Shown here piece by piece: positions 11,933 to 28,177 of a stretch of DNA of 28,177 nt (position 1 is the first letter of the stretch; each line of letters opens with the position of its first letter). A model generated the notes under the pieces. The model saw only the letters and a list, made by a program, of their open reading frames with translations, ran no database searches and had not been told where the DNA came from. The stretch comes from Lachnospiraceae bacterium (GTDB lineage: Bacteria > Bacillota > Clostridia > Lachnospirales > Lachnospiraceae): contig JBNMJJ010000002.1 of the NCBI GenBank assembly GCA_050873745.1, forward strand, positions 1 to 28,177, written 5' to 3'. The position numbers were made by a program, and so were the translations under genes.

Positions 11933-11949
11933 AAGAAGGAGAATTACAT

Positions 11950-12416: not shown

Positions 12417-12422
12417 TGACAG

Positions 12423-13301: not shown

Positions 13302-13613
13302 GTGCAAATTGGATCTCTTGTAGTAAAAAGGATTTCCTTTAGTAGTACCGAAATGTACAGTTATGCAGAGCCGGATTTATTGAAACTTATTGTTGATATG
13401 CGACAGGAAGGTTATAGCAATCGTGAGATAGCAAGAAAAGCGGTTGCTGTTATTGAAGATTATCGGGATTGGGGAATTAGGGAAGTTACGCAAATTATAG
13501 TAGCACTCACAAAGACGCACAACAGTGCATTACAAAGGCTTTACAGAGATACAGCGGAATATGGAAATATTGACAGCTATCAGAAATGGGAAGATGCAAG
13601 GGAAAATTGGTAA
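13302..13613 (+). CDS. Small HTH-like protein; start uncertain
   Basis: The segment QEGYSNREIARKAV resembles a sigma-r4/LuxR-type HTH. The track start is a GTG and the internal ATG at 13353 has no good RBS. Confidence 0.45.
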   Translation: MQIGSLVVKRISFSSTEMYSYAEPDLLKLIVDMRQEGYSNREIARKAVAVIEDYRDWGIREVTQIIVALTKTHNSALQRLYRDTAEYGNIDSYQKWEDARENW

Positions 13614-13668
13614 TCACATAAGGGGAGTTGTCGGCATGGCAATTCCCCAACATGAACGGAGGCAGTAG

Positions 13669-14217
13669 ATGGAAATTAAAAAGCGAATTAGGCCGCTTAC
13701 ACTAACAGAAAAGCAGTATGCAACGGAAAACTATCATCTAATCACTAAGTTTTTGAAACGCTCAAAATTGGACGCAGAGGAATTTTTTGACATTGTAGTT
13801 TTTGAATATCTGCTATCGGTGGAAAATTATCTAAACAATGCCGAGTTGCGGAACAGATGCAACTTTGAATCAGTTTCCTATATGCATATGAGGAGGGCAG
13901 TGTATAGGCATTTTAGGGAACAAAGAGCATTAAAAAGAAGTTGTGAAGCTGGTGTGGATGTGAGTTTTGAGGAAGTAGATGCTTGTATATCGGATTCAAT
14001 CGGCAATATGGAAAATTTACTTGAATACAGGGAAACCATAAAGCAGATTAAGAAAATTTTAACCGCAGAGCAGCAGAGGATTTTCTTTGCTAAGTTGGAA
14101 GGTTACTCACTCAAAGAGATAGCGGAAAACAACGGAATCAATCCTAAAAGGGTATATTGGCAGTTTAGAAAAATCAAAAATATTGTAGCTGATGTTATTG
14201 GAATTTCAAGGCTATAA
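13669..14217 (+). CDS. Sigma-70-family (ECF-like) RNA polymerase sigma factor
   Basis: GGAGG lies 6 nt before the ATG. The C-terminal region-4-like HTH is LTAEQQRIFFAKLEGYSLKEIAENNGINPKRVYWQFRKIK. The N-terminal segment is region-2-like. Confidence 0.7.
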   Translation: MEIKKRIRPLTLTEKQYATENYHLITKFLKRSKLDAEEFFDIVVFEYLLSVENYLNNAELRNRCNFESVSYMHMRRAVYRHFREQRALKRSCEAGVDVSFEEVDACISDSIGNMENLLEYRETIKQIKKILTAEQQRIFFAKLEGYSLKEIAENNGINPKRVYWQFRKIKNIVADVIGISRL

Positions 14218-14243
14218 GGATAACAGAAAGGACGAAAGATATT

Positions 14244-14476
14244 ATGTTTGACTTTAGAATTATAGAGACAGTAGACGAAAATCAGATTATAGATAGGAAT
14301 TTAAAAACACCATACAGCACACTTACACCTCTTCAGATGGTTGAGTATATGGAAATGGATAACAGTTTGCATATATGGATAGGTTAGAACGGAAAGCAAG
14401 GGCTGAAGCAGAACACAAACGGAAACTTGTGCGGAATACAATATATAAAATAGCTTGTTTATGTAGATTAGTTTAA
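14244..14476 (+). pseudogene. Small ICE-associated gene split by a frame shift (47-aa and 33-aa pieces)
   Basis: ORF 14244-14387 (MFDFRIIETVDENQIIDRNLKTPYSTLTPLQMVEYMEMDNSLHIWIG) overlaps ORF 14375-14476 (MDRLERKARAEAEHKRKLVRNTIYKIACLCRLV) in another frame at an ATATAT run. I recall single-ORF homologues that read through ...MDRLERKA.... Confidence 0.45.
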
Positions 14477-14497
14477 TCAAGAAAGGTGGAAACGAAT

Positions 14498-14805
14498 ATG
14501 TATAAATCAAAATTTTTCAATATAGGAAAAGTCGTTGTTACACATGAAATTAATGAAGCTATGAAGAAAATAGCCGATTTGCAGCAGAAGTCAATGTATC
14601 CTTACAGCGGTATACGGTAAAGGATTGGGGACATCTGGATGAAGAGGATAAGCAGACTAATGAAGATGCTTTACAATATCCTGATAATCTGTACTTATTA
14701 GCAACCTATGAGACTTGCAAAGGGAAAATATGGATTATTACAAACAGAATTTCGGAAATTGCCGGAGATAATGCTACAACGGTATGTTTTCCTAGTGAAA
14801 GATAA
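14498..14805 (+). pseudogene. Small conjugative-element-associated protein gene with a 1-nt frame disruption
   Basis: A start with an RBS (GAAAGGTGGA) gives a 40-aa ORF that stops at 14618-14620. The +2 frame is open from about 14556 to 14805. It encodes (S)YEENSRFAAEVNVSLQRYTVKDWGHLDEEDKQTNEDALQYPDNLYLLATYETCKGKIWIITNRISEIAGDNATTVCFPSER with no Met at all, so it cannot start independently. Confidence 0.6.
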
Positions 14806-14868
14806 ATGGAAATTGTTGCGTGGACTGTCTGGATTAAGGCGGTCCATAGGTTTAGGAAGGTGGATATT

Positions 14869-15463
14869 ATGGCGATTGTTATTACAAATGGAAATCATTA
14901 TGTTACATATACAGACAGTGGAGCAACGAAGAGAACCACGGATATAAATAATGCTTATCAGTTCTCTACTGTTGATGAAGCTATAAAGGGCATGAAGAAA
15001 GCGGAGGAAAAGACTAAAAACTATTTTGTGTTTGATACTCTTACACAGCGGATTCTATTGGAAGTGGATGACTGCGGATGAAATCAAAGAAATGCGTGAA
15101 AACAAGGTATCATTGTCAATGGTAAAGCGGAATCATAAAGGAAAGATTATCAGAAAATCATATTCAGAGGATACAAGAAAATTAATATATCTTCATGCTG
15201 GTGGACGGTGTGAGTTGTGCGGAAGGAAAATCTTACTTGAAGATATGACAATAGATTATATTACACCGTTAGCAATGGGCGGTAAGGATGATGTGGAAAA
15301 TTTATCTTGTACCTGTTACCCATGCAATTTATTCAAAGGAAACATCTTACCGTCTGACTTCATGGAAAGAATAACGGATATATTCTTATACCAGATGGAA
15401 AGACAGCATAAGGGTAGGTTTGGATGGAAAATTGTACATAATATGTTGAATAAGATGATTTGA
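14869..15463 (+). pseudogene. HNH endonuclease gene, apparently split by a 1-nt insertion near 15055-15061
   Basis: An RBS (AGGAAGGTGG) precedes ATG 14869 (MAIVITNGNHYVTY...DTLTQRIL), which then stops at 15079-15081. The other frame continues YWKWMTADEIKEM ... CELCGRKI ... DYITPLAMGG ... ENLSCTCYPCNLFKGN (HNH). Removing one T from CTATTGG restores QRILWKWMT. Two separate genes cannot be excluded. Confidence 0.55.
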
Positions 15464-15502
15464 TATAATCGGCACTGGTGGAAAATTTTCTGCTGGTGCT
15501 GA

Positions 15503-15531
15503 TTGAAAAAAGACGGAAGGAGTGTTATAAT
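15503..15531 (+). promoter_or_regulatory. Near-consensus sigma-A promoter
   Basis: TTGAAA (15503-15508), a 17-nt spacer containing TG at 15523-15524, then TATAAT (15526-15531). It lies about 35 nt upstream of the HTH gene. Confidence 0.55.
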
Positions 15532-15562
15532 ATACACAGAAATAAATGTATATTATATGTGA

Positions 15563-15889
15563 ATGGAGACTATGATGGTTAATTATAATAAATTGATGGA
15601 AAAACTTAAAGAAAAGGGTATTACTACCTATACTATAAGACAAAAAGCATTGATACCACAAGGCACACTTGCAAAGTTAAAAATGTGTAGCGGTGATTCA
15701 ATGGAAGAGATTGAAAAGAAACTGCAAGAATACAAAGATAGCCACGATGGAAAAGATTTCATGTGTGATGTATCAACAAAGACCATTGAGGACATATGCC
15801 AGTTGTTACAATGCCAGCCACAAGATTTAATTGAATGGAAAGTTGACTTAAAGCCAGAATTAGCATATGAAAACAGATTTAAGGAATAG
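15563..15889 (+). CDS. XRE/Cro-like HTH protein with an internal insertion; start may be 15572 or 15575
   Basis: NYNKLMEKLKEKGITTYTIRQKALIPQGTLAKLK ... TKTIEDICQLLQCQPQDLIEW matches the short HTH family. About 25 aa (SGDSMEEIEKKLQEYKDSHDGKDFM) are inserted between helices. Confidence 0.6.
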   Translation: METMMVNYNKLMEKLKEKGITTYTIRQKALIPQGTLAKLKMCSGDSMEEIEKKLQEYKDSHDGKDFMCDVSTKTIEDICQLLQCQPQDLIEWKVDLKPELAYENRFKE

Positions 15890-15900
15890 GAGGTATGGTT

Positions 15901-16125
15901 ATGACAGCTTTAAGACAGAGTGCAATAATGGAATTGGAAAAGTTGCCGGAAGATAAATTGAGTTTCATAATTCAGATAATGCAAGGTGTAAATGGCTTGT
16001 ATACCGATACTAATTCAGAAAGGAAAGAAGCATTTGCAAGATTGGAACAGTTACGCAGAAAGGGAACTGTTACAGATGATGACGCAGAGTTAGCTTCGTA
16101 TAAGGAAGAAAAGTATGGTAAATAA
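15901..16125 (+). CDS. Type II antitoxin (partner of the PIN toxin)
   Basis: AGGAGG (15888-15893) lies 7 nt before ATG 15901. The track start at 15895 is too close to the RBS. The protein is small and acidic, and it overlaps the PIN gene by 11 nt. Confidence 0.6.
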   Translation: MTALRQSAIMELEKLPEDKLSFIIQIMQGVNGLYTDTNSERKEAFARLEQLRRKGTVTDDDAELASYKEEKYGK

Positions 16126-16528
16126 GATTCTGATTGATACTAATGTATTATTGGATTATCTTCTTGAACGTGAGCCATTTTTTGAGGATGCAAAGGAAGT
16201 TATTTTGTCCTGTACAGATGGAAAAATAAAAGGATGTATAGCAGCACATTCAATTTCTAATATGTTCTTTATATTAAGGAAGGACTACAACGTAAAGGAG
16301 CGCAGAGAAGTATTATTGAATTTGTGCAAAATCTTTGATGTAGAAGGAATAGACAAAGCAAAACTAATATTAGCACTTACCAATGAGGATTTTTCAGATT
16401 TTGAGGATTGCTTACAGACGGAATGTGCAAAGGTATACGGAGCAGATTACATTGTTACGAGAGATGTTTCTGATTACTCCACATCGGAAATAAAGGCAAT
16501 TGAGCCGAAGGATTATTTAGAACTGTAA
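16115..16528 (+). CDS. PIN-domain ribonuclease toxin (VapC-like)
   Basis: ILIDTNVLLDYL carries the first acidic residue. Further acidic residues lie in FFEDAKE, DFEDC and IVTRDVSD. The length is 137 aa. Confidence 0.8.
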   Translation: MVNKILIDTNVLLDYLLEREPFFEDAKEVILSCTDGKIKGCIAAHSISNMFFILRKDYNVKERREVLLNLCKIFDVEGIDKAKLILALTNEDFSDFEDCLQTECAKVYGADYIVTRDVSDYSTSEIKAIEPKDYLEL

Positions 16529-16537
16529 AGCGTGAGA

Positions 16538-16580
16538 AGCACCAGCGGAAGAAATAAGATTTCTTCTGAAGGTGCTTTTT
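16538..16580 (+). terminator. Rho-independent terminator of the HTH-antitoxin-PIN operon
   Basis: AGCACC..GAAGAAAT-aag-ATTTCTTC..GGTGCT is followed by T5 (16576-16580). Confidence 0.65.
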
Positions 16581-16581
16581 C

Positions 16582-18063
16582 GAGACCGTTTCAAGTTTTG
16601 TGTAAACTCAAAAATCTGATATAAGATATGTGAATAGTTACGGAAGGGCAGAGCCGATTTTTTTGGTTCTGCCCTTACCTGCATTATACAGGGATTTTTT
16701 CGCATGTCAACAAAACCTGCATACTTTCAGGCTGCTTTACAGATTCCTGCCTGCAAGACGTTCCTCAAAATAGATTTCCAACTGGGAGTGAATCTGTCCC
16801 CAGTCCTGCCTGTGTCCGGTCCATTTTTTGGTCATGTCCATCATAGCCAGATACAGCATTTTTAAGAGGCTGTCATCTGTTGGAAATACAGTCTTGGATT
16901 TCGTCACTTTCCGGAGCTGCCGGTGAAATCCTTCAATGGCATTGGTTGTATAGATAAGCCTTCTGACGGCTTCCAGATATTTGAAATAAGTGGACAGGGT
17001 TGCCCAGTTATCGTGCCAGGACTTATCTATTTTAGGATATTTATTATTCCATTTGTCTTTAAACCGCTCCAGTTCATTTAAGGCAGTGTCCTCTGTTGGT
17101 GCTGCATATACCCGTTTTAAATCCCCCATCAGGCTTTTGATATCTTTGTAGGAAACAAACTTCGTGGAATTGCGGATTTGGTGGATAATGCACTGCTGTA
17201 TTTCTGTTTTGGGATAGACAGCTTCAATTGCCTGTGGGAATCCGGAAAACCCATCCACACAGGCAATCAGAATGTCTTCCACACCACGGTTTTTTAGTCC
17301 GTTCATGATGGAAAGCCAGAATTTTGCACTTTCATTTTCCCCCACATACATTCCAAGCACATCTTTTCTTCCGTTCATGTCGATACCGAGGGCTATATAG
17401 ACAGCCCTCTTTACAATGCGTCCTTCACTGCGGACATGGTAGTGGATAGCATCCATAAATACCACAGCATAAACTTCTTCCAGAGGACGTTCTTGCCATT
17501 CCTTAACCATTGGGAGAATTTTATCCGTAATCCGGCTTATGGTACTGTCAGAAATATCCATATCATACAGTTCCTTCATGTGGGATTCAATATCTTCGGT
17601 AGTCATGCCTTTGGCATACATGGAAAGAATCTTTTCTTCCATATCCTGTGTCACGGTATTCTGGTACTTTTTGACAAGCTGGGGTTCGTATTCACCATTC
17701 CGGTCACGAGGAATTGCAATATCCATGTCTCCGTAACTGGTATGCATGGTTTTACTGGAATGTCCGTTCCTGCTGTTGTCCGTATCCTTATTCCGGTAAT
17801 CATACTTGGAATAGCCGAGTTCCTCATCCAGTTCTTCATCCAATGCACCTTCCAGAAGTACCGACATCATGTCACGCATAACCGAGTTTACATCGGAACC
17901 GTTTTTGATGCTGATATCCTTATTTTTGAGATAATCACGCATCATTTCTCTCATTGCTGCTTTTTGTGGGCTGTCATTTTTTCTTGCCATAATTAAAACC
18001 TCCAAACTGAGTAATTTTATCTTACATCAGTTTAGAGGTTTACACAAACTTTGGGATAGTCCC
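16582..18063 (-). mobile_element. IS256-family insertion sequence (1482 bp)
   Basis: The imperfect terminal inverted repeats are GAGACCGTTTCAAGTTTTGTGTAAAC (16582-16607) and the reverse complement of 18038-18063, GGGACTATCCCAAAGTTTGTGTAAAC. They end in TTGTGTAAA like the IS256 IRs, as I recall them. They enclose a Mutator/IS256-type transposase gene. Confidence 0.8.
16737..17990 (-). CDS. IS256-family (Mutator-type) transposase
   Basis: It has typical IS256 transposase features: NGHSSKT, PRDRNGE(Y)EPQLV, VFMDAIHY, GMYVGENESAKFW, LIACVDG, YTTNAIEGFHRQLRK. ATG 17990 lies 8 nt after GGAGG and is preferred over the track's TTG at 18005. Confidence 0.92.
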   Translation of the reverse strand: MARKNDSPQKAAMREMMRDYLKNKDISIKNGSDVNSVMRDMMSVLLEGALDEELDEELGYSKYDYRNKDTDNSRNGHSSKTMHTSYGDMDIAIPRDRNGEYEPQLVKKYQNTVTQDMEEKILSMYAKGMTTEDIESHMKELYDMDISDSTISRITDKILPMVKEWQERPLEEVYAVVFMDAIHYHVRSEGRIVKRAVYIALGIDMNGRKDVLGMYVGENESAKFWLSIMNGLKNRGVEDILIACVDGFSGFPQAIEAVYPKTEIQQCIIHQIRNSTKFVSYKDIKSLMGDLKRVYAAPTEDTALNELERFKDKWNNKYPKIDKSWHDNWATLSTYFKYLEAVRRLIYTTNAIEGFHRQLRKVTKSKTVFPTDDSLLKMLYLAMMDMTKKWTGHRQDWGQIHSQLEIYFEERLAGRNL

Positions 18064-18269
18064 GAAAATATCTACGAGCGCATATTAACCCATTTAAAAG
18101 AAAAGATTTTTGGCATGAATGTGTCTCTTCTTTGTTACTCTTAACTATATTTGTTTAAGTTTTATACAAATACACACCTGTTTTTACTTCAATTACATCA
18201 GTTATTCTAGCTTGCTGATTTTCTGTTGCCAAAATGTTGCCACAAACTACTCTTTATAACAAAACACGC

Positions 18270-19154
18270 TTATTCATTCAATTCGTTCATAATACCCTTT
18301 TCAAAATCAGTCAACTTTATTATTTCGACATCATCTTTACCTATAAAGCTTTCTATTAAGTTTAATTGCTCAAATTTATTTCTTACAATAAGAGCATCTT
18401 GTTCGTTAACATAATACCCACTCTGAAAACTACTTATAGCATCTTTAAACTACGAAACCTTTTTTATACCAGTAATTCTTAATGAAACAAACTTAAACAA
18501 ATTATCCAATGTAGTCTTAACCGTCTTTTTATCTATTACTGTGTTGGAAGTAAAAATAAAAACCTTTTCGGTAAAATGTAATATTATTTCCTTTCCATAA
18601 AATGCTTCTTCAAAATCAACATCCTTTTTAATTATTCCAACAGAAGATATTTGCCTCCGTAAGTCCTCATTTTCTGCCTGCAGAAACTCAATTTGTTTCA
18701 GCATTCTTTCTTTCTCTTCATCATTTCCTCTATGCCAACCTGGTCGTTTTATTTCATTCTTCGCTTGCATAATTGCAATTGCTACTTTTCCCATTAAGTC
18801 AGATTGATCTTTCCAAACACTGGCTAATCTATTTCTCATTGCTCTACTCTTAAATTCAGCCAATTTTCCCTTTTTGATATCATCCTTTTCTATTTTATCA
18901 TCATCAACTTCTACAGAATCATCTAACACAAATACTAAAACAGGTATACCTTTATCTATAGCATAATTATATTCCATTTCCGTATAACTAATTCCAGTTG
19001 CTTCATTAACGGAGCCATAACGTTTTCCTAAAATTAAAATATAATAATCACATAAATCAATGACTTTTTTTATTACACTAAATTGTTCGTCATCTGTTGC
19101 TACAAAATTCTCCATGCCGGCCGGAATACAATCTGCCATAAGTAAAATATCCAA
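18270..19154 (-). pseudogene. DUF4062-like (TIR/deoxyribosyltransferase-like fold) protein gene, disrupted
   Basis: CIPAGMENFVATDDEQFSVIKKVIDLCDYYILILGKRYGS matches the DUF4062 core as I remember it. An in-frame TAG at 18450-18452 is followed by 59 more sense codons to TAA at 18270-18272. Upstream the frame stays open to a TAA at about 19221, with no ATG or GTG and only the track's TTG at 19154. Confidence 0.6.
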
Positions 19155-19335
19155 TACACGCCTTCTTTCTACTTTTTTTATTTCTGGTACATATATGTGG
19201 CCTTTATATTTTTATTATACGGTATACTTTTGTGAACTTCAAGTATTTATTTTAAATTTATATACACAAATATGTCCTAATGTGATAGAATTGAACTAAG
19301 CACTACCGAAAATCACCAAAATCGGAGGTATCGGC

Positions 19336-19884
19336 ATGACTACCGGAGAAAAGATTAAACACTTTAGGAATTTGCGTGGCATATCACAGGAAACGCTCGG
19401 TCAGCTTTCCGGCATCAATTCCGCCACAATCAAAAAGTATGAGTATGGCATCCGCAACCCCAAACCCGACCAACTAATGAAGATTGCAAATGCTTTGGGT
19501 ATCAGTATCAATGTTTTCATGGATTTTGATATAGAAACGGTATCAGATGTATTGTCCTTGATATTAAAAATGGACGAACAGTTAGATATGGACTTTGAAG
19601 CAGAAAAAGATGAGGACGGAAGTTTTATTCCCTCTACAATCAAAATATCCTTTAAGAATTCACTGCTCAATCATAAGTTAGGTGTTTACATGAAAGCAAG
19701 AGAATTGCAGGAAAACCTTATAAATGATACGAAACGCTTCTCATCAGAGGAAGAACACCAACGTGCCATTGAAGCACTCTCAAAGGATTTAGACGCTGTT
19801 AAGCAAAGTATTCTTGATGACAGCAAGATTGTCAAAAAGAGCGTTAGAGGTATATCGGTTAAAATATATCCAGAAAATGAATGA
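19336..19884 (+). CDS. XRE-family HTH transcriptional regulator with a ~115-aa C-terminal domain of unknown function
   Basis: GGAGG lies 7 nt before the ATG. The N-terminus KIKHFRNLRGISQETLGQLSGINSATIKKYEYGIRNPKPDQLMKIANALGISINVF is a classic Cro/C1 HTH. Confidence 0.8.
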   Translation: MTTGEKIKHFRNLRGISQETLGQLSGINSATIKKYEYGIRNPKPDQLMKIANALGISINVFMDFDIETVSDVLSLILKMDEQLDMDFEAEKDEDGSFIPSTIKISFKNSLLNHKLGVYMKARELQENLINDTKRFSSEEEHQRAIEALSKDLDAVKQSILDDSKIVKKSVRGISVKIYPENE

Positions 19885-19905
19885 CAAAAATTTCCCAGAA
19901 AAATA

Positions 19906-19936
19906 TTGACTCCCACGCAACGTGATACTGTATTCT
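19906..19936 (+). promoter_or_regulatory. MerR-type promoter with a 19-bp spacer
   Basis: TTGACT (19906-19911), a 19-nt spacer containing the dyad CACG-caa-CGTG, then TATTCT (19931-19936). It lies about 75 nt upstream of the MerR-family gene. Confidence 0.4.
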
Positions 19937-20012
19937 TTTCTCAAAGGAGCAGAATAGATATTAGCCGGCAATCTCTGTCTTGCTTCTTGACCAATTTAAG
20001 GAGCTGATAAAA

Positions 20013-20891
20013 ATGCGAACCATAAGCCAAGTTGCAGAATTAACAGGCATAAGCACCCGCACATTACAATACTATGACGAGATTGGGCTGTTAAAGCCAA
20101 GCGAGTTAACACAATCCGGCTATCGTCTATATAATGATGAAGCCTTGCAAAAGCTACAACAAATCCTGTTTTTTAAGGAATTGGGCTTTAAGCTGAAAGA
20201 AATTAAAGAAATTTTGCAAAAACCGGACTTTGATAGAATTAGGGCTTTCAAAAGGCAAAAAGAGTTGCTTCTGCTGAAGCGCAATCGGACAGACAGACTT
20301 ATACAGCTTCTTTGCCGCTTAGAGAAAGGAGAACAATGTATGAGTTTTAAAGAATTTGACCTGTCTGATTACATCAAAGCATTAGAGGACTTTAAAAACA
20401 ACAGCACTGATGATGTTATCAAACACTGGGGAAACGTTGAGAATTTTGATCTGTTTATCCAAAAAATCAAAGATGATGAAGCCGAAGTAGCCAAACTTGC
20501 TATTAAACAATTTGGAAGTATTGAAAAGTATACGGAAGCCATGAAGTATAATCTGGAACACTTTTCCGAAATTATGGAAACACAATTACCGGAAGAAGCA
20601 AAAGAAATCGGAAAACAATCTGATATGCTGTATGGCAAACTAACCGCCGATTTGTCAGAAGATGTTTCTTCCCATAAAATACAATCCATTGTACACGAAC
20701 TATTGCAGTTTATACAGAAAAACAGCACCAGCGTATCCCTCAATAAGCCCTATGCAAATGTGCTTATCGACACCTATTCAAACGATTATATAAAAAGCAT
20801 AACTGATAGCAAGTATGGAAAAGGGGCTTCTGATTACATTGTAAGAGCTTTCTGTTATTACTCCGAGAATAACGCTCCCGAAAACAATTAG
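20013..20891 (+). CDS. MerR-family transcriptional regulator with a long C-terminal effector domain (TipAS/Mta-like)
   Basis: AAGGAG (19998-20003) precedes ATG 20013, which is preferred over the track's TTG at 19980. MRTISQVAELTGISTRTLQYYDEIGLLKPS...GYRLY is the MerR winged HTH, followed by a coiled coil. Confidence 0.85.
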   Translation: MRTISQVAELTGISTRTLQYYDEIGLLKPSELTQSGYRLYNDEALQKLQQILFFKELGFKLKEIKEILQKPDFDRIRAFKRQKELLLLKRNRTDRLIQLLCRLEKGEQCMSFKEFDLSDYIKALEDFKNNSTDDVIKHWGNVENFDLFIQKIKDDEAEVAKLAIKQFGSIEKYTEAMKYNLEHFSEIMETQLPEEAKEIGKQSDMLYGKLTADLSEDVSSHKIQSIVHELLQFIQKNSTSVSLNKPYANVLIDTYSNDYIKSITDSKYGKGASDYIVRAFCYYSENNAPENN

Positions 20892-20932
20892 AGCCATTTT
20901 AGAGTTATCCGCAAATTTTGTGCTTAAACCTC

Positions 20933-20961
20933 TTGAAACATTTCAAATACAATGGTATTAT
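20933..20961 (+). promoter_or_regulatory. Candidate promoter for a plus-strand small RNA
   Basis: TTGAAA (20933-20938), a 17-nt spacer with TG at 20953-20954, then TATTAT (20956-20961). No ORF with an RBS follows. Confidence 0.4.
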
Positions 20962-20967
20962 AACAAT

Positions 20968-21075
20968 ACAAAAGGAAAGTACCCACTCCAAAGTGGATGC
21001 TCCGAGTTTAGGCTAAGAAATGTCCTTACGGACACCGCCTATCCTGTTGGCAGACAGGATAGGCATTTTTATTTT
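20968..21075 (+). ncRNA. Candidate ~108-nt sRNA convergent with the holin-like toxin gene (possible type I antitoxin)
   Basis: It is bounded by the promoter at 20933-20961 and the terminator at 21037-21075. It would be antisense to the 3' end and 3' UTR of the minus-strand toxin transcript. This is a purely structural inference. Confidence 0.3.
21037..21075 (+). terminator. Rho-independent terminator (11-bp stem, 6-nt loop, T-rich tail)
   Basis: GCCTATCCTGT (21037-21047) pairs with ACAGGATAGGC (21054-21064) and is followed by ATTTTTATTTT. It overlaps the last codons of the minus-strand toxin ORF. Confidence 0.65.
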
Positions 21076-21188
21076 CGCTTGTTGTTTCTCTTATCGAGAA
21101 AGGCAAGCAACGCAACAATTAAGCTACCAAAGAACATCAGCAATGCTAATATTTCAATGAAAATCGATATGATTTCAAAAGCTGTCAT
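21069..21188 (-). CDS. Holin-like small hydrophobic toxin (Hol-Tox-like, 39 aa), absent from the ORF track
   Basis: GGAGGTGG ends 5 nt before the ATG at 21188. The translation is MTAFEIISIFIEILALLMFFGSLIVALLAFLDKRNNKRK: one TM helix plus a basic tail, the pattern of the putative holin-like toxin family of Firmicutes. Confidence 0.65.
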   Translation of the reverse strand: MTAFEIISIFIEILALLMFFGSLIVALLAFLDKRNNKRK

Positions 21189-21279
21189 CAGCGCCACCTC
21201 CCTTCCTATGTATTCCGGCACGCCGGTTTTCATAAACTCGGGAGGCTACCACCCTGTCATGGGTACTTTCCGTAGATGT

Positions 21280-21308
21280 ATTGTAACACGAAGATATATG
21301 AATGGCAA
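21280..21308 (-). promoter_or_regulatory. Sigma-A promoter for the toxin transcript
   Basis: On the minus strand: TTGCCA (reverse complement of 21303-21308), a 17-nt spacer, then TACAAT (reverse complement of 21280-21285). It predicts a ~85-nt 5' UTR. Confidence 0.5.
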
Positions 21309-22027
21309 TTAGTTTTTCGGATTTCATGCAGGTATCATGATACCCCCCTAAACTCAGTATTCACCAAATAATTAGAGCCAACAGGCATAAAGCAATCCCG
21401 GAAACACCCTTTTTATCAGCATTTCCGGGATTTTATCCGTTACTCGAACTCTATTACACATATCATATCTTGTGTCTGACCAGTTTTAAAATCACTAGAT
21501 TTAGTATCTTAAAATTATATAATTTTAACTATCTCAGAGTCCTCAAGGCGCTTTGTAACCCTTTTGTAACCCTGTTGTTATTATAGAATAGTCTGGTGGT
21601 TTTCGCAAGAGGAAAAGTGATTATGTTTCGAACAAATTTTCTATCCAATACTATATAGAATTATCGATGCACAATGCTTTCAATCACCATCCCAAATACA
21701 ATCCGGGCGCACTTTTGCAAGTGCGATCAACTGGTACAATGGTTTTAATGCATTCGCAACTGTAGGTAACCAGTAGTTTAATTTTTCATGCTACTTTCTT
21801 TAATGAGTTCGATAAATACCATTCCCTATCCAATATCAAAATGGTAGTAAACATTCAATAGGTCTTGTAGAAAGTGACCATCTATTGCAGAAAATGGATA
21901 AAAATACAATTTATCTTCTTCCGAAGGCTTGAGCTTCATTGACAGGAATCGTATACTAGAGCGAATTATCTAAAAATAATGTACGATATATTTCTTGTAA
22001 ATATATAAAAACAAAGGAGATTACACC

Positions 22028-22960
22028 ATGACCAATTTACCGATTCACATTAAAAACTATTTAGAATATTGCAACACCCAAAAACGCTTAGATGTAAAAA
22101 CATTAAAAGCATACCGTATTGACCTACGGCAATTTTCTGAACAGATTTCCATAGCTGAAACCACAGAACTTACTTCCACTTTCTTAGAAACATATGTGGC
22201 AAAACTCCATCAACAATATGCCCCAAAAACTGTAAAACGTAAGATTGCATCTTTAAAAGCCTTCTTTCACTATCTTGAATATAAGGAAATCATTAACCAG
22301 AATCCATTTAGCAAATTACAGATGAGATTTCGGGAACCAATTGCATTACCCAAAACAATCCTTCTACATACTATCGAAACATTGCTAAATACAGTTTACG
22401 AACAATACCGCAATGCTCCTAGCAGCTACCAAAAAAAGAACTCCCTGCGAGATATAGCTGTTATAGAGCTGCTTTTTGCAACAGGAATTAGAATCTCTGA
22501 ACTCTGCACAATACAGTATCAAAATATAGACTTGCAAAATAATGTTATTGTAATTAAAGGAAAAGGCGCCAAAGAGCGTCTTATTCATATATGTGATGAA
22601 CATGTTATTACTGCACTGGAAAAATATCGTTCAGAATACGATAGTGAAATTCACTCATGCGGCTATTTCTTTGTAAATAGTATCGGGAATCGCTTATCTG
22701 ATCAGTCTGTAAGAGAAATGATTAATAAATATTGCCAAATTGCAGATATCCAACAGCATATTACTCCGCATATGTTCCGACATTCTTTTGCCACACTGCT
22801 TTTAGAAGAAAATGTTGATATCCGTTATATTCAAACCATGCTAGGACACAGTTCAATAAACGTAACAGAAATATATACACATGTTACTATGTCAAAACAA
22901 AAAGATATTCTTGAATCAAAACATCCCCGCAAAAGCATGAACATATCAAACCAATTATAG
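22028..22960 (+). CDS. Tyrosine recombinase, XerC/XerD-like
   Basis: An AAAGGAGA RBS precedes the start. All catalytic contexts are present: ATGIRISE (Arg), GKGAKER (Lys), HMFRHSFAT (His-x-x-Arg), LGHSS (His), EIYTHV (Tyr). Confidence 0.9.
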   Translation: MTNLPIHIKNYLEYCNTQKRLDVKTLKAYRIDLRQFSEQISIAETTELTSTFLETYVAKLHQQYAPKTVKRKIASLKAFFHYLEYKEIINQNPFSKLQMRFREPIALPKTILLHTIETLLNTVYEQYRNAPSSYQKKNSLRDIAVIELLFATGIRISELCTIQYQNIDLQNNVIVIKGKGAKERLIHICDEHVITALEKYRSEYDSEIHSCGYFFVNSIGNRLSDQSVREMINKYCQIADIQQHITPHMFRHSFATLLLEENVDIRYIQTMLGHSSINVTEIYTHVTMSKQKDILESKHPRKSMNISNQL

Positions 22961-22967
22961 TAGTTCC

Positions 22968-23001
22968 AACAGTCTTGAAGAATACCTACTTCAAGACTGT
23001 T
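22968..23001. terminator. 13-bp-stem hairpin between the convergent recombinase and SbnA-like genes
   Basis: AACAGTCTTGAAG (22968-22980) pairs with CTTCAAGACTGTT (22989-23001) across an 8-nt loop. TTTGTTGG follows on the plus strand. The 3' arm overlaps the last codons of the minus-strand gene. Confidence 0.5.
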
Positions 23002-23956
23002 TTGTTGGTTGGACTACACCATAAAATCCGGTATCTATTTTATTGCACCATTCTTTGCCATATATTGTGTCTAAATACCTTTCCCCTCTATCCGGAAAAA
23101 TCCCAACTATTGTTCTCGTATCAAAATCAGTTGAATAACCTGTATAATTTTGAATGGCATAGGCTACCGCCCCACTTGAGGCACCTACAACAATCCCCTT
23201 TGATAAGAGCTTATTGCACTCTGATATGGCATCCGCTTCCTCAATAATCATATAATCATCATATTTAGCATGTACTAAATTATGCGGAATTAACCCAGTT
23301 CCGATACCTGAAATATGCTTCTTCCGGTTGCTTGGTTCAAAAATTTGTGAACCCACAATATCAACCGCAACAATTTTACAATCGGGAAATTGTTCTTTTA
23401 TTTTTTGAGATGTACCTGCCAAAGTTCCACAGGTACTAACTGCAACAAATAAATAATCTATTTTTCCCATTTCATTACACAGTTTTTCCCCTAAAGAAAA
23501 ATATGCCTTCCAAACATATTCATTTTCATATTGGTTTGTCCAATATACATTTGTATGATTTATAACATATTCTTTTACAGTCTGTATTCTATCCTGCACA
23601 TAGTTTCCATTTTTGTCTGCTTTACGAGCAACAACAATCTTAGCTCCCAATAATTCGATGATTTTCCTATTTGACTCTGTTATGTTGGGATCAACCACGC
23701 ATATAAAAGAGTTCCCTTTTATTTTACACATTCCTGCCAAAGCAATTCCAAAATTGCCCGACGATGATTCTATAATGACTGTATCATTTTTTATTATCCC
23801 ATCGTTGTATGCATTTTCTATTAAGTACCTTGCTGCCCTGTCTTTAACACTGCCAAACAGATTATTACCTTCTATTTTTGCATAATACTCTATTTTATTG
23901 TTTACCTTTAAAAGCGGCGTATTGCCAATCATATCCGTAATATTTTGTATTCTCAT
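22991..23956 (-). CDS. PLP-dependent cysteine-synthase-fold enzyme, SbnA-like (2,3-diaminopropionate pathway type)
   Basis: GGAGG lies 5 nt before the ATG. PLP-Lys context is GSVKDR (K38, 23843-23845), the Asn loop is SSSGNFG and the phosphate loop is VGASSGA. Long stretches parallel S. aureus SbnA as I recall it: IIESSSGNFGIALAGMCKIKG..CVVDP, YWTNQYENE, FPDRGERYLDTIY. Confidence 0.75.
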   Translation of the reverse strand: MRIQNITDMIGNTPLLKVNNKIEYYAKIEGNNLFGSVKDRAARYLIENAYNDGIIKNDTVIIESSSGNFGIALAGMCKIKGNSFICVVDPNITESNRKIIELLGAKIVVARKADKNGNYVQDRIQTVKEYVINHTNVYWTNQYENEYVWKAYFSLGEKLCNEMGKIDYLFVAVSTCGTLAGTSQKIKEQFPDCKIVAVDIVGSQIFEPSNRKKHISGIGTGLIPHNLVHAKYDDYMIIEEADAISECNKLLSKGIVVGASSGAVAYAIQNYTGYSTDFDTRTIVGIFPDRGERYLDTIYGKEWCNKIDTGFYGVVQPTKQS

Positions 23957-24007
23957 AAAATCCTCCGAGGATAATAAGAAATTATCCGTTGGAAACAGGT
24001 GAAAATT

Positions 24008-26962
24008 ATGGATAAAACATGGAAACTATTTGAGAGTGTAGCCTATGAGTATGTTTCACAGTTGTATAAAAAAACTATAAAAAGTGAACATACTGTAGAT
24101 TCGCATGATTCAGGATATGATGGCATATGGATCATTCCCTCTGACAATAAAGCATTATATAAGAAAATAATGATGGAAGCCAAATACAGAGAATCGCAGT
24201 CTTCATTACCATTAAATGATTGCGCAAAGGCTATTATTATTGCTTTTAATTCTTCTGCTAATAAATTGTATATTGCTACTAATATAGAATTAGCACCACA
24301 AACCAAAGAACAAATTAAAAATTTTAATAATAGAACAGCATTAGCAATAGTAAGCGTAGACAATATAAAACTTAAAAATTATATTCATAATAATAAAACA
24401 TATTTGGTAAAAGCCTGTAAGACAAAAGAATCTCGCTTATCTGATTTAGAAAGTAAAATTGTTTCCCTGCCCACAAAAGAAAATAATCAAATAAACAAAT
24501 CTTTGACAAAAGACACTTGTTTACTTGATACTCAAAGGCAGGAACTCATATCAAATATAGTGAATGAGGTCTGTATTTCAAACAAGAAAATTATTCTTTC
24601 CGGTGCTGAGGGAATCGGGAAAAGTGTACTCATTGATAAAATATGTGATGAATTACAGAAAAAGAAGTTTGACACACAAAAAATTGATTTGAGTTTGTGC
24701 ACTAGTTCCAGAATATTGTATTTAAAAGTCTTAGAAGCAGTGTGGGGTGTTTCATTAGATGCCATATTGAAAGATACAGATTTAAGCACATATATAGATA
24801 GATTAATAGCAATAAAGGAGAAGTGTATTGATCCTGATATCTCAAATGCTGTTAAGCATATTATGGTAATGAATATTTATGAGTATGAAGGAGCAAATGA
24901 TATTTATCGGTATTATTTACTCAAGTATTTAAACGCTATGCTACAAGATAAAAGTGGATATTTTCATTTGGCAGTTTTTTTTGAAAATGTGGATTCGCTT
25001 TCTATAGAATGTGTAGACTTTTTCCTAGAACTTATTGAGCAAATGAAAAATAATGGAATAAGGATTCTTCTTGAACTCAGAAAGCCGTTTATGCTGACGG
25101 ATGATATTAAGAGTTCTAATGATTACTATAAAATAATCAAGAAAAACGCTCTTGTACATTCCGTGGAGCCATTATCTGAAGACTTAATTTATAAATTTAT
25201 TAGAAAATATATTAAATTGGATAAAGATTCCTGTAAACAATTCAGTGATATGCTGGAAGACAACCCGCTTAAAATTAAAAACGCATTAGAGTATCTTAAA
25301 CAGACTTCAGTAAATGTAAATGTTAGGGAACTGAAGAAGATGTCAAATGAGGAACGCGAAATTTTTTGGAATGATCGAGGTATTGATGCCAATAGAGAAG
25401 CAGTTTCTCTGATTTCAAAATACAGAACAAATTCTTTAATCTCAGAATTGCTAGAAATGGCATTGCTTTTGAACGGCGAAATTCCCTATTTACTGTTAAG
25501 CGATTATTGGGGAACGCAGACAGATGAAATATATGAGTTTGCCATTGATAGTAGATTGTTTAAGCTTAAAGATAATAATCTTCAGTGCGCCCATTTGCGG
25601 TTTTTATCAGCAATAAAGACAACTTTGCAACCATTAGAACGAATGAAAGCAGCACAAAAATTATTGCCCATTATACAAGAGAAAAGTGATGCCAAGTATC
25701 CATTTATCCAGTTAGAATTACTATATATATTAGAACAAGATAATAATATTGGTGATTATACAATGTATGTTATGTCGCTGTATGAAGACTCGCAACAATA
25801 CAAACAATCAATAGCAGTTGGCAAAAAATATATTGAAAGAGTAGATAATAAAAGGATACTTTCAACTAGCGAAAAAAGTATGAGGGTACATGTTTTAATA
25901 AAAATGTTACATTGTATATATGAACTTCATGCAGATAATGAAAAGGAGTATGAATATTTCTATCAAATAGCAAAAGAATCAATTATACTACACGTTCCTG
26001 ATTATACATCCTGCAAGGAATGGTATGAATATTCTTTATTCACATGGCATAAAAAATTTATAGCCGGATTGTTTGATGACGCATATCGGATTAGTAAAGA
26101 ACTATATGATAATTTGCCAAATATATTTTGTATTTTTGATTTGAACGATGATATCGCAGGGCGTATATATTCTGCACATGGATTATCTTTAAAAATGCTT
26201 GAAGGAGGGGATGCCGCCACAAATCTTTTTAAAGAAGGAATTGAAAAATATCCTGAGTCATATAACGCTCGCGCCGCCTATTTATCGCAAGAAGGAAATC
26301 GCCTGCTTAAGGAAAAACCATTAGAGGCAGTAAAAAAATATAGTGAACTTTTAGATACTGTAAAAGGGAAAGCCTATCCATTTTTGGAAATTATACATAC
26401 AAGAATTGATATTGCTATGTCTAATTTCTTGGCACAAGAATATGACATTGCAAAAATATGGGCTGAGGAAGGATTAAGTATTGCCTCTACACTAGGTATT
26501 CATATTCAAAAGGGAAGGGCATTAAATATATTAGGTTGCTGTAAAGTGGCTAATGGCAAATATATAGAAGGGTTGAATCTTCTTAAAGAAAGTGATTTTT
26601 ATTTGGAGCTTTCAGGAGCCGCTATTTATAGATGGAGAGTCCTGCTGAACCAAGCAAGTGTATTATTCGACAAAGGCGATAAAAAGGAAGCAAAAGTCCT
26701 GATTCTACAGGTAGTAAATATATTGTTGTCTGATTTTACCAAGAAAATAAAATCAGACAACATATCAGTGCCCTATCAAAGTTTATTATTGATATTAATG
26801 TATTTACATGAGCTAGAAGAGGACGTAGAAAGCATTTTAATCCAGCTTGAAGGTATTTCGATACGGAATGATTTTAACCAGCTTTGTCAGACAATAAATT
26901 GGAAAAATTGCTTTCAGAATAAGGTAAAATACTGTAACGGCGTAGTATTAGTGACTGGCTGA
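24008..26962 (+). CDS. Mrr-like PD-(D/E)xK nuclease / AAA_16-type STAND NTPase / TPR-like repeat protein (Avs-like architecture)
   Basis: AGGTG (23997-24001) lies 6 nt before ATG 24008; the track starts at GTG 23999. The N-terminus reads FESVAYEYVSQLY...DSGYDGIW...IMMEAKYR...IATN, which is Mrr_cat-like (D41 at 24119-24121, E60-A-K62 at 24176-24184). Walker A is GAEGIGKS (24602-24625). The Walker B region LAVFFENVDSLSIECVDFFLELI (from 24968) resembles AAA_16 (vlDDlhwaD.aSl.lL). The C-terminal ~400 aa is helical and repeat-like. Confidence 0.75.
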   Translation: MDKTWKLFESVAYEYVSQLYKKTIKSEHTVDSHDSGYDGIWIIPSDNKALYKKIMMEAKYRESQSSLPLNDCAKAIIIAFNSSANKLYIATNIELAPQTKEQIKNFNNRTALAIVSVDNIKLKNYIHNNKTYLVKACKTKESRLSDLESKIVSLPTKENNQINKSLTKDTCLLDTQRQELISNIVNEVCISNKKIILSGAEGIGKSVLIDKICDELQKKKFDTQKIDLSLCTSSRILYLKVLEAVWGVSLDAILKDTDLSTYIDRLIAIKEKCIDPDISNAVKHIMVMNIYEYEGANDIYRYYLLKYLNAMLQDKSGYFHLAVFFENVDSLSIECVDFFLELIEQMKNNGIRILLELRKPFMLTDDIKSSNDYYKIIKKNALVHSVEPLSEDLIYKFIRKYIKLDKDSCKQFSDMLEDNPLKIKNALEYLKQTSVNVNVRELKKMSNEEREIFWNDRGIDANREAVSLISKYRTNSLISELLEMALLLNGEIPYLLLSDYWGTQTDEIYEFAIDSRLFKLKDNNLQCAHLRFLSAIKTTLQPLERMKAAQKLLPIIQEKSDAKYPFIQLELLYILEQDNNIGDYTMYVMSLYEDSQQYKQSIAVGKKYIERVDNKRILSTSEKSMRVHVLIKMLHCIYELHADNEKEYEYFYQIAKESIILHVPDYTSCKEWYEYSLFTWHKKFIAGLFDDAYRISKELYDNLPNIFCIFDLNDDIAGRIYSAHGLSLKMLEGGDAATNLFKEGIEKYPESYNARAAYLSQEGNRLLKEKPLEAVKKYSELLDTVKGKAYPFLEIIHTRIDIAMSNFLAQEYDIAKIWAEEGLSIASTLGIHIQKGRALNILGCCKVANGKYIEGLNLLKESDFYLELSGAAIYRWRVLLNQASVLFDKGDKKEAKVLILQVVNILLSDFTKKIKSDNISVPYQSLLLILMYLHELEEDVESILIQLEGISIRNDFNQLCQTINWKNCFQNKVKYCNGVVLVTG

Positions 26963-28177
26963 TTATTGGAATATCTGCAGCAGGATGTCACTTCTCTTTT
27001 TTAATGATGCGGAAATAGGGTTTAAACGTGCTGCTTCTGATACCAATTCTTTGCAAATACCTAAAAGGAGCCATCCTCCAAGTATTGAGTTCGAAATATG
27101 CAAAATAGGAACTGCTTTAAGTATATTTTCCCATAAATTTATTGTTTCTTTTGAAACATAGTTTTTTGCTACAAAAGTAAGAAGAAAGTCAGCATAATCA
27201 ATTCCAGGCCAGCCTGGATGAAGTTTTTCGTTATCCAGTAAAATAGTCTGCGGATTAAAAATAAGATTTTTGTAATCGAATCCGCCGTGATTTAATACTG
27301 GTTGCAGATTAGATTCTTCCAACGAAAGCGTGCTTGCTACATGAAATACTTTTGGATATATTGACATAATAAGCTTCTGTTGTACTGTGGATAAAAGGTT
27401 GTAATAATGGTTCCAACGCAATAATTCTACCCGGAGGGAATAATCATTATAATAATATTGCCATGGATAATTAGAGGATACTATTTTTTTGTACAAATTA
27501 TCAATTTTTTGATAATTTGTTTTTTGTTGTATTAGTTTATTTAGATTTTGCATGCATTTTGGGTCAGAAAGAGGATTACTCTCATAAAAATTATTTATCG
27601 CATGTAGTGCATGGGTTAATTGCTGTTCCAAAGGAAGTTCTATGTTCTCATATTTCTCCCTAATGAGTGCATGTCTTGGTCCATGCTTTCCTAACAACGC
27701 TGGAATTCCGTGAAATGCAGTTGCTCCAAGTTCGGCACGGTAACGCTTTATGGAACTAATAACTGTTGGTTGTTCTTTTTCTTCTGACCAGAGGGAAGAG
27801 TAATTCATTCGGTCATAGGGCATTTTTATAAAGTAATTTCTATTAGAGCATTCTACAGTCCAGCTTGCAGAAGAACTATTTGAGCAATTAACAATGGAAA
27901 TAACATCTGTAATTCTGTTATCATGCATAATCTGTAAAATATCAGATTTGTCAACCAAATACATATTAAATGGATAAGTTAATGGTATTCTGAAATTAGG
28001 ATTTAATTCAGGCTTTTTATGAGAGTCTTCCTTAAATTCATTGCCTTCAATTGCAGCTGTATAGGAGGCTAAATGTTTATTTCTAAAGTTCCAGTTTTTT
28101 AAAGTGTCTAGCCCAGTCTGTCGGGCTTGCTGCCCCATACAGTTTGACAGGTAAGGTTGTTTTATAAAGTGTTCCAT
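26963..28177 (-). CDS. Protein-kinase-like fold (APH/CotS-type phosphotransferase) protein with an atypical catalytic loop
   Basis: The ATG sits at the very window edge, so upstream context is unseen. The beta3-like segment is NYFIKM. The catalytic loop VLNHGGFDYKNLIF (27266-27289) corresponds to hHGDxxxxNhh. ILLDNEKL...GWPGIDYADFLL corresponds to the APH motif hhDxE....g.p..DhA. Confidence 0.5.
   Translation of the reverse strand: MEHFIKQPYLSNCMGQQARQTGLDTLKNWNFRNKHLASYTAAIEGNEFKEDSHKKPELNPNFRIPLTYPFNMYLVDKSDILQIMHDNRITDVISIVNCSNSSSASWTVECSNRNYFIKMPYDRMNYSSLWSEEKEQPTVISSIKRYRAELGATAFHGIPALLGKHGPRHALIREKYENIELPLEQQLTHALHAINNFYESNPLSDPKCMQNLNKLIQQKTNYQKIDNLYKKIVSSNYPWQYYYNDYSLRVELLRWNHYYNLLSTVQQKLIMSIYPKVFHVASTLSLEESNLQPVLNHGGFDYKNLIFNPQTILLDNEKLHPGWPGIDYADFLLTFVAKNYVSKETINLWENILKAVPILHISNSILGGWLLLGICKELVSEAARLNPISASLKKRSDILLQIFQ

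Follow-up and report, generated by a model that had tools for sequence, protein, structure and literature searches.

A candidate phase-variable cassette pairing an Avs-like STAND nuclease with a convergent glycosyltransferase arm

STAND sensors, the Avs proteins among them, are costly and potentially autotoxic. Avs3 and Avs4 consist of an N-terminal nuclease effector, a STAND NTPase and a C-terminal TPR-like sensor, the effector being Mrr-like in EcAvs4 and a Cap4-type nuclease in SeAvs3. Here we describe a gene of the same domain order, termed T, in a 28,177-nt stretch of DNA from a Lachnospiraceae bacterium (the forward strand of contig JBNMJJ010000002.1, hereafter the window). T occupies positions 24008-26962 on the plus strand, encodes a protein of 984 aa, and is convergent with a glycosyltransferase (GT) arm that shares its cassette. 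By analogy with Avs3 and Avs4, ligand-induced oligomerisation would be expected to switch on the nuclease of T. A 2026 survey of prokaryotic STANDs (PMC13581612) defined 589 clades and named Avs1-24; its main text is silent on any such gene that lies, together with an obligate GT partner, inside an invertible cassette.

Programmed inversions are known from several other settings. In Ureaplasma parvum, the mba/UU376 genes are switched at short inverted repeats with XerC-type recombinases (PMC3047005, PMC3599477), and the G segment of phage Mu with Gin, and the invertons of Type I restriction-modification hsdS genes with PsrA/CreX, are further examples (PMC7096588, PMC7672463). These systems and the T cassette have in common short inverted sites, an adjacent recombinase, opposed promoterless coding units and a mixed population. 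In the described cases, however, the alternates are variants or paralogues serving a single function (surface antigens, tail fibres or specificity subunits), whereas in the T cassette they are unrelated, a STAND nuclease on one side and a GT arm on the other. The T cassette differs also in that whole genes with their own ribosome-binding sites are swapped, not C-terminal segments, and the arrangement is conserved across phyla. No T/GT inversion switch of this kind came to light in the STAND survey (main text), in a systematic search for gene-altering inversions (PMC9881135), which makes no mention of a T/GT module, in an inverton survey (PMC11892184), or in keyword searches of the literature.

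A third point of comparison is the proposal that GT4 domains act as effectors in bacterial conflict systems, some of them STAND-linked (PMC8195603; Kaur, Burroughs, Iyer and Aravind 2021). As at the T locus, the GT4 domains of these systems (Pfam PF20706) are coupled to a STAND NTPase in mobile, patchy loci. They occur as fusions or in co-directional operons, whereas the GT4 arm described here is convergent with its STAND gene and part of a proposed inversion switch. The PF20706 similarity of the partner of T is faint (E 0.03, and faint elsewhere), its closer functional relatives being MshA and sucrose-phosphate synthase.

The reading of the locus to which we incline, at slightly better than an even chance, is that of a phase-variable switch in which the flipping of the cassette by a recombinase alternates an Avs-like sensor, an abortive nuclease, with a glycosyl-modifying arm. 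The features on which it is built are the following.

22028 to 22960, plus strand: Xer-like tyrosine recombinase of 310 aa, the presumed invertase (Pfam Phage_integrase, E 3.7e-42, and a SAM-like N-terminal domain)
22968 to 23001, either strand: strong, bidirectional terminator-like hairpin (stem of 13 bp, then a T-run) where the recombinase and PLP genes converge
22991 to 23956, minus strand: SbnA-family pyridoxal phosphate (PLP) enzyme, lineage-specific cargo between recombinase and cassette (Pfam PALP; NCBIfam PLP_SbnA_fam at 343 bits, where the cut-off is 350)
23969 to 23987, either strand: core recombination site GGATAATAAGAAATTATCC, the left cassette boundary (arms GGATAA and TTATCC around the spacer TAAGAAA, with inverted copies in relatives)
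26960 to 26962, plus strand: stop codon of T, TGA
26963 to 28177, minus strand: 3' half of the partner gene, of which the window holds 404 codons before it ends (counterpart at locus L004: the C-terminal half of a 789-aa protein, 90% identical)

T is a genuine gene and no chance open reading frame. The frame can begin at GTG 23999 or ATG 24008 and ends at 26962; the ATG is the likely start because a GGTG ribosome-binding site lies 7 nt upstream of it and the N-termini of homologues coincide with it. The homologues fall into 65 clusters at 90% identity, almost all of them full length. A profile of the family, searched against 1.84 billion representatives, recovered 755 proteins at E < 1e-3, including 140 (representatives at 50% identity) at E < 1e-30, which are mostly of ~1000 aa and align end to end. 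The AlphaFold2 model of T has a mean predicted local distance difference test score (pLDDT) of 88.6 and a predicted TM-score (pTM) of 0.87.

Forty-two loci with T homologues, labelled L001-L042, were compared. T and its convergent GT4 arm form a cassette of ~5.4 kb between inverted RGATAA-N7-TTATCY sites. The core site measures 19 bp and is made up of two inverted 6-nt arms around an asymmetric 7-nt spacer, a layout typical of tyrosine-recombinase sites. In the window, GGATAATAAGAAATTATCC is the sole match to this core (there were none in 100 shuffles) and lies 20 nt 5' of the ATG of T; the right-hand site of the same cassette must lie past the window end. At L011, the identical 19-mer is present at both ends of the cassette, and at L001-L003 the cassette is bracketed by 41-nt inverted repeats placed 5488 nt apart. 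Inverted core sites flank the cassette in most loci for which both ends are available, pairs being found at L001-L009, L011, L014, L020, L022-L028, L033, L037 and L039-L042. Wherever two sites can be recognised, their spacers are identical within the cassette, while 11 differing spacers occur across lineages (TAAGAAA, TAAGGAA, TTTTTAG, TAAAATA, TTAAAAG, TCAGGAG, TATGCAA, TTAGCAG, TACATAG, TACACGA and CTATAAA). A tyrosine recombinase needs matching spacers for strand exchange, and their identity here supports flipping of the cassette.

Both orientations of the cassette are found between identical flanks in at least four lineages. L001 and L003 carry it in one orientation and L002 in the other. 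Within a single teichoic-acid/exopolysaccharide-type gene cluster, L006 is opposite in orientation to L004, L005, L007, L008 and L009, with identical junction sequences swapped. L024 and L025 are likewise opposed, and a C/T polymorphism at the first position of the outer arm remains with the flank instead of moving with the cassette, so the crossover lies inside the core. At L039, a 7.6-kb block is inverted relative to both flanks when compared by blastn with L040-L042, with overlaps of 26 nt at the sites. In the window T faces the flank that carries the recombinase and PLP genes, whilst at L010, L011 and L022 it is the partner gene that does so.

Assemblies also break at the sites. The longest contig measures 5.3-5.63 kb in 28 of the 65 clusters of T homologues, and the cassette forms a separate contig in the clonal isolates L015 (Claveliimonas monacensis DSM 108991) and L012 (Lachnospiraceae bacterium 29-84) as well as in many metagenomes; the contigs of L015 and L021 terminate within the core site at both ends. 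Assemblers usually work with k-mers longer than these repeats of 19-40 nt, so the breaks would mean that the reads contained junctions of both types. Because the module fragments short-read assemblies into contigs of ~5.4 kb, it is likely to be under-annotated in gut metagenome-assembled genomes (MAGs), and it would easily be missed by defence predictors that rely on gene neighbourhoods.

These observations bear on a different account of the repeats, in which they are the ends of a transposon-like element, the recombinase is its transposase or integrase, and the two orientations reflect independent insertions. The module is indeed found in many unrelated genomic contexts, often with toxin-antitoxin or mobile and defence-type genes, and tyrosine recombinases do mobilise elements. 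Against this, the repeats do not enclose the recombinase gene, the two orientations share the same left flank and the same right flank and switch within the 19-bp core, and the breaks of isolate assemblies at the sites are those that a culture of mixed orientation would be expected to give. Collections of phage, plasmid and viral-contig sequences yielded no relatives, and fold matches in BFVD were generic. Independent insertion is thus disfavoured, given the identical flanks and the external recombinase, and we regard it as highly improbable.

At locus L013 (Lachnospiraceae bacterium 3-2), the cassette is flanked by perfect inverted repeats of 1480 nt (7500-8979 and 14357-15836), each of which holds a copy of the recombinase gene; either the duplication is genuine or scaffolding produced it artificially from a culture of mixed orientation. 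Several smaller features recur around the core sites. A second, degenerate core-like element lies ~30-40 nt from the functional core at L004 (9921-9985) and L011 (2088-2149); it stretches the L004 inverted repeat to ~60 nt and is perhaps vestigial, perhaps a site for accessory binding. A ATTGATATTTG motif recurs 20-30 nt outside the core at L024-L028. At L004/L006 (near 15397-15415 and 9921-9939) and at L020 (5369-5392), the recombinase reading frame ends GGA-TAA within the outer arm, an overlap of stop codon and site shared by lineages whose T proteins are ~23% identical; it suggests read-through from the recombinase gene into whichever gene adjoins.

The adjacent recombinase is presumed to invert the cassette in situ. 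Its matches to the NCBIfam XerC and XerD models (246 and 240 bits) fall under the equivalog cut-offs, and the catalytic R, HxxR, H and Y are all readable in its translation. A homologue adjoins the cassette in most loci that have enough flank. The gene had been listed in a first-pass annotation of the window as part of the context of T, within an AT-rich island; it is there, though it is no mere background, being the presumed invertase of a cassette that holds T and the GT arm. The compact 6-7-6 nt site, together with a recombinase of ~300 aa, could serve as an orthogonal inversion tool.

The second occupant of the cassette is as constant as T itself. T is convergent with the GT arm in all 42 loci, with stop codons that abut, as in the window, or overlap. 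The biosynthesis-like neighbours noticed in the first-pass annotation exist, although the neighbour is a conserved, obligate partner inside the cassette and not an incidental one. The pairing is kept where T is 21-27% identical to the window protein (L020, L031-L034) and persists in a Longimicrobium (Gemmatimonadota) MAG and in another non-Firmicute contig, where a PIG-L deacetylase and a split GT4 form the arm as one operon. In a gut lineage (L039-L042), the invertible block carries a UDP-glucose dehydrogenase and a GT8 in addition.

In the window, the arm is a single protein that fuses GT4 to a kinase-like domain. Full-length relatives of the partner measure ~789 aa and comprise an N-terminal GT4, which lies beyond the window here, and a C-terminal domain. 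They contain Pfam GT4 domains, and their best NCBIfam and PDB matches, MshA and sucrose-phosphate synthase, are far below equivalog cut-offs. The C-terminal domain has no Pfam match. An AlphaFold2 model of the 404-aa part encoded in the window (pLDDT 72) was matched by Foldseek to B. subtilis YtaA/CotI, APH(9), ethanolamine kinase, choline kinase and LicA, and the domain is thus predicted to have an APH/choline-kinase-like fold. Kinase activity is doubtful, since the catalytic-loop motif H-x-D...N is not conserved in distant members. Two leads as to the function of the arm come from elsewhere. In B. subtilis, the GT4 CotSA is encoded beside spore-coat kinases of the CotS type, and the combination of GT4 and PIG-L follows the first-step logic of the mycothiol, bacillithiol and aminoglycoside pathways.

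The T protein itself can be divided into the following segments.

24008 to 24391, plus strand: residues 1-128, PD-(D/E)xK nuclease domain of Mrr type (conserved residues, Mrr_cat in relatives, fold order of the model)
24530 to 25177, plus strand: residues 175-390, P-loop nucleotide-binding domain (model, Pfam matches of relatives, conservation)
24602 to 24625, plus strand: residues 199-206, Walker A, a conserved GxxGxGKS
24968 to 24988, plus strand: residues 321-327, atypical Walker B strand, hhhhF-x-N family-wide
25178 to 25597, plus strand: residues 391-530, helical domain and winged-helix-like element (secondary-structure order of the model, Foldseek)
25598 to 26962, plus strand: residues 531-984, TPR-like helical repeat sensor (all-helical model, TPR matches in relatives)

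The order of Mrr-type nuclease, STAND NTPase and TPR sensor had been proposed from motifs read in the translation. Every motif quoted there is present, and the order is borne out by the AlphaFold2 model, by conservation in an alignment of 113 sequences (mean column identity 17%) and by Pfam matches among 48 diverse family members scanned against the Pfam and PADLOC libraries. In the nuclease domain, the catalytic residues, whose absence from an alignment would have undermined the assignment, are in place, with D34 and E57 present in 113 of 113 sequences and D38 and K59 in 112; G36, D38, K59, R61 and N92 are each conserved in at least 97%. The N-terminus of the model runs alpha-beta-beta-beta-alpha-beta, the order of the PD-(D/E)xK core, and D38 opens strand 2 while E57 and K59 sit on strand 3. 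The Mrr-type signature thus stands as regards catalytic residues and core order, although the Pfam Mrr_cat profile (PF04471) is silent on window T itself at E <= 1. The same profile matches 20 of the 48 relatives at E < 1e-3, with a best E of 2.1e-10, and a precomputed PF04471 annotation is present on the P0109 group. A different N-terminal effector in members of 1040-1090 aa was considered and rejected, Mrr_cat being found there too.

Residues 175-530 have, in the model, the layout of a STAND module, with a nucleotide-binding domain followed by helical and winged-helix-like domains. The nucleotide-binding domain is modelled with five parallel strands (194-199, 222-227, 321-326, 352-358 and 381-386). 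In Walker A, residues G199, G202, G204, K205 and S206 are conserved, K205 in 113 of 113 sequences. In window T, the Pfam families NACHT, AAA_16, nSTAND3 and nSTAND6 all score below threshold; AAA_16 matches 29 of the 48 relatives and nSTAND3 10. The winged-helix-like element is seen in the model as a beta-hairpin (518-527) after a helix (494-514).

The Walker B segment had been placed correctly in the first-pass annotation, on strand 321-326, but it lacks a conserved acidic residue. The strand closes with F325-x-N327; position 326 varies, and 94 of 113 sequences have Asn at 327, so that T carries Asn where the Avs proteins would have the canonical acidic residue of hhhhD[D/E]. The missing acid might be replaced by E356 of the following strand, a residue that 94 of the 113 sequences share. 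Because Walker B has a conserved Asn and no conserved acid, the sequence suggests that the NTPase of T binds nucleotide with weak or altered hydrolysis, perhaps acting as a binding-only or slow-hydrolysis switch.

The sensor, of ~450 aa, is all-helical in the AlphaFold2 model from about residue 531 to 984. TPR families match the relatives (TPR_12 in 19 of 48), and the family profile matches the TPR structures of LGN/Pins, RapF and MalT in a PDB profile search. Five polar residues of this region, K729, H797, R837, N840 and N881, are invariant or near-invariant.

The likeness to MalT raises a further possibility, a version of which had been put forward in the first-pass annotation as a LAL/SARP-type regulator, namely that T is a MalT/LAL-like regulator of the adjacent glycosyl pathway, with a nuclease fold that merely binds DNA. 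MalT/LAL regulators resemble T in having a P-loop STAND-like NTPase followed by a helical-repeat sensor and in lying beside metabolic genes. The constant link of T with a biosynthesis-like arm, the weak match of its profile to the TPR-like domain of MalT, the degenerate Walker B and polar sensor residues that could suit a small-molecule ligand would all fit such a role. Unlike these regulators, however, T has no helix-turn-helix (HTH) or LuxR-type domain, either in its own Pfam matches (E <= 1) or among the top families of the 48 relatives. Instead it has an N-terminal nuclease fold with an intact catalytic triad. The invariance of D...ExK over 113 sequences averaging ~17% identity is unexpected for a relic that only binds DNA and argues against one. 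Moreover, the operon that would be the target converges on T, and no intergenic region is common to the two. Given the intact triad and the missing HTH, the regulatory account is disfavoured and very unlikely.

At the level of structure, T is Avs-like, as had been claimed for its architecture. In a Foldseek search of the PDB, the top matches of the model were Avs3 (8dgc_A, E 1.9e-10), a Pyrococcus STAND-TPR protein (6mfv), Avs4 (8dgf_B, E 5e-7) and SAMD9. Their TM-scores were low (0.16-0.24), as expected for large multidomain proteins of differing length; T, at 984 aa, is far shorter than the aligned Avs3 and Avs4 chains of 2028 and 1534 aa, with which the TM-scores were 0.16. No sequence-level relationship to Avs3 or Avs4 was detected with PADLOC or in PDB profile searches. 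In the latter, one with a profile of the full family and one with its N-terminal 450 aa, the best 60 of >230 matches each included no Avs or Mrr structure; they did include TPR proteins and generic P-loop ATPases (AAA+, NtrC, FtsY), and Apaf-1 matched at E 0.01. No curated NCBIfam family matches T, and searches of Pfam, NCBIfam and PADLOC with HMMER and of PDB sequences with phmmer gave only generic P-loop and TPR similarity. In PADLOC-DB 2.0.0, no Avs/AVAST model matches any of the 48 relatives, the sole recurrent match being a weak one to mad8 (8 of 48). The earlier description of the family as unassigned therefore holds against PADLOC 2.0.0, Pfam, NCBIfam and PDB sequences. T belongs to a previously unnamed, cross-phylum family of STAND NTPases with an Mrr-type nuclease and a TPR sensor. 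The protein alone would be another Avs-like STAND with an Mrr-type effector; what the searched literature did not show is its conserved embedding in a proposed switch that swaps whole genes.

How the cassette might be read depends on where transcription begins. T starts 20 nt, and the partner 30 nt, from the core site, each with its own ribosome-binding site, and in most lineages the ATG of T lies 20-90 nt from the site. As there is no room for a promoter inside the cassette, transcription must enter from a flank, and orientation sets which flank each gene faces. At L001/L002, a promoter candidate (TTGACA-16-TATAAT) is found on the recombinase side only. At L026-L028, an extended -10 element (TGgTATAAT) lies 12 nt from the site, again on the recombinase side. 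At L014, the candidate (TTGAAA-17-TAATAT) belongs to the far flank, and the recombinase gene is followed by a terminator hairpin. In the window, the hairpin at 22968-23001, if it works, would block read-through from the recombinase gene before it reached the cassette in this lineage. T in the window may be in the OFF orientation, since the PLP gene points away from it, the terminator lies beyond and no inward promoter is evident; its state would depend on the far flank, outside the window. Reciprocal, orientation-dependent expression of T and the GT arm is proposed with moderate confidence.

The same reasoning extends to the PLP gene. Its ribosome-binding site (GGAGG, 23962-23966) abuts the core site, an arrangement also seen at L010, L011 and L022. 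With no promoter room outside the cassette, its transcription must start in the invertible segment or pass through it, and its expression may itself be orientation-dependent; no convincing outward promoter was found for the PLP gene in the window. This dependence on the adjacent cassette end is one of two points in favour of the idea that T is an ordinary, constitutive Avs-like defence gene and that what inversion regulates is the GT arm or the genes alongside, for instance the SbnA-like one. The other is that, in L039-L042, T lies off the cassette edge behind an internal divergent intergenic region that may hold a promoter of its own. Set against them are the short distance between site and ATG in most lineages, which leaves no promoter space inside the cassette, and the fact that T as well as the GT arm always lies inside the invertible segment. 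We consider a constitutive T distinctly unlikely.

It is also conceivable that T and the GT arm are co-expressed as a single conflict system and that inversion only exchanges promoter strengths, tuning the T:GT ratio; the GT4 enzyme could then be, for example, a second effector or a modifier of self or invader molecules. The strictness of the T-GT pairing across phyla would fit, as would the proposed role of GT4 domains, including STAND-linked ones, as conflict effectors (PMC8195603), the weak matches of the partner to that family, and the inward genes or promoter candidates on both flanks of some loci. On the other hand, strong transcription of both genes would lead to collision, as they converge and their stops abut or overlap, a good promoter candidate is present on one flank only in several lineages, and matched inverted sites with co-varying spacers imply selection for switching itself. 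Co-expression is unlikely on this evidence, though not negligibly so.

Several observations nevertheless weigh against a phase-variable switch between an Avs-like sensor and a GT arm. Scans for promoter consensus sequences in the AT-rich DNA showed no enrichment over shuffles, and the side with the best candidate, as scored on the flanks, varies among lineages. At L004, L033 and L037, inward transcription is plausible from both flanks. In L039-L042, the divergent region, shared by T and the UDP-glucose dehydrogenase/GT8 pair, measures 60 nt, and an internal promoter for T may lie there. In the window, no promoter directed into the cassette was seen on the recombinase-PLP side, and the far side is beyond the window. 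The switching apparatus is incomplete in places, with sites but no recombinase within 7 kb at L037, and only one recognisable site at L035. As to an immune function, the PADLOC-DB 2.0.0 scan of T gave no match at E <= 1, and no PADLOC defence model matches the partner or the recombinase. A Walker B devoid of a conserved acid in 113 sequences is unusual among STAND NTPases, and the invariant polar residues of the TPR region suggest a conserved ligand over a fast-evolving interface with phage proteins.

Two possible hairpins near the 3' ends of the convergent genes were noted. The first is listed below.

26724 to 26762, minus-strand RNA: hairpin with a 17-bp stem in the 3' coding region of T (-22 kcal/mol, z -5.5)

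It resembles a terminator for the partner transcript, ~200 nt past the partner stop, and is present at L001, L004, L012 and L013, weak at L014 and absent from L010, L011, L022 and L023. L011, L022 and L023 encode the identical peptide without it, and L010 differs at two residues; as a conserved part of the module it was therefore rejected. The second is a palindrome, TCCAGGCCAGCCTGGA, followed by a T-run (27203-27218, plus strand), which lies ~240 nt past the T stop inside the partner gene. It encodes a conserved PGWPG motif on the opposite strand and may be a codon coincidence; if functional, it would mirror the hairpin in T and provide reciprocal embedded terminators.

If the cassette is indeed a phase-variable switch, it might operate as follows. 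By analogy with Avs proteins, the TPR domain of T would bind a trigger, whereupon the nucleotide-bound STAND module would oligomerise and the clustered Mrr-type domains would cut DNA, halting the infected cell. Inversion of the cassette by the recombinase would, through orientation, set the gene that each flank transcribes. 'T-on' and 'GT-on' cells would then coexist in a clonal population, the former equipped with an intracellular suicide sensor and the latter with a glycosyl-modifying function. An entire Avs-like gene would thus be hard-wired into a recombinase-driven switch that is kept from gut Lachnospiraceae to Gemmatimonadota. Should orientation decide expression, an immune sensor would be under natural and heritable ON/OFF control, the inverton would exchange unrelated functions and not a pair of alleles, and intracellular immunity would be tied to the modification of glycans or metabolites.

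A bolder version of this proposal, which is possible and which we hold only tentatively, is that the cassette flip-flops between two unrelated and perhaps incompatible anti-phage strategies, conserved across phyla. One state would arm the Avs-like suicide nuclease, and the other would express the GT4/kinase or GT4/PIG-L deacetylase arm to remodel a surface glycan or make a glycoside. Populations would in this way hedge between dying on infection and avoiding or chemically blocking it. If true, this would amount to a new regulatory principle for bacterial innate sensors and a new, whole-gene-swapping class of inverton.

The wider surroundings of T agree with the AT-rich island described in the first-pass annotation. 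From ~10 kb onwards, the GC content of the window is 0.30-0.38, against 0.44-0.50 before, and nuclease, PIN, transposase and recombinase genes are present. The island (10000-22000) follows a housekeeping block of tig, clpX, lon, an AI-2E transporter gene and truA, and includes the genes below together with further HTH proteins.

15026 to 15463: HNH nuclease (Pfam)
16115 to 16528: PIN-domain protein
16737 to 18005: Mutator-family transposase
18450 to 19154: DUF4062 protein
19336 to 19884: HTH_3 protein with a capH-like PADLOC match
19980 to 20891: MerR/TipAS regulator

No convincing open reading frame was found in the ~1.1 kb at 20900-22027, and scans of the window for tRNAs and Rfam families found nothing. 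At other loci, conflict-type neighbours of the module include a SMODS nucleotidyltransferase (L035, 14040-15026), a PemK toxin (L001, 602-970), a Phd/ParE pair (L020, 7210-7771) and a SocA/MqsA-like gene (L016, 3531-4577).

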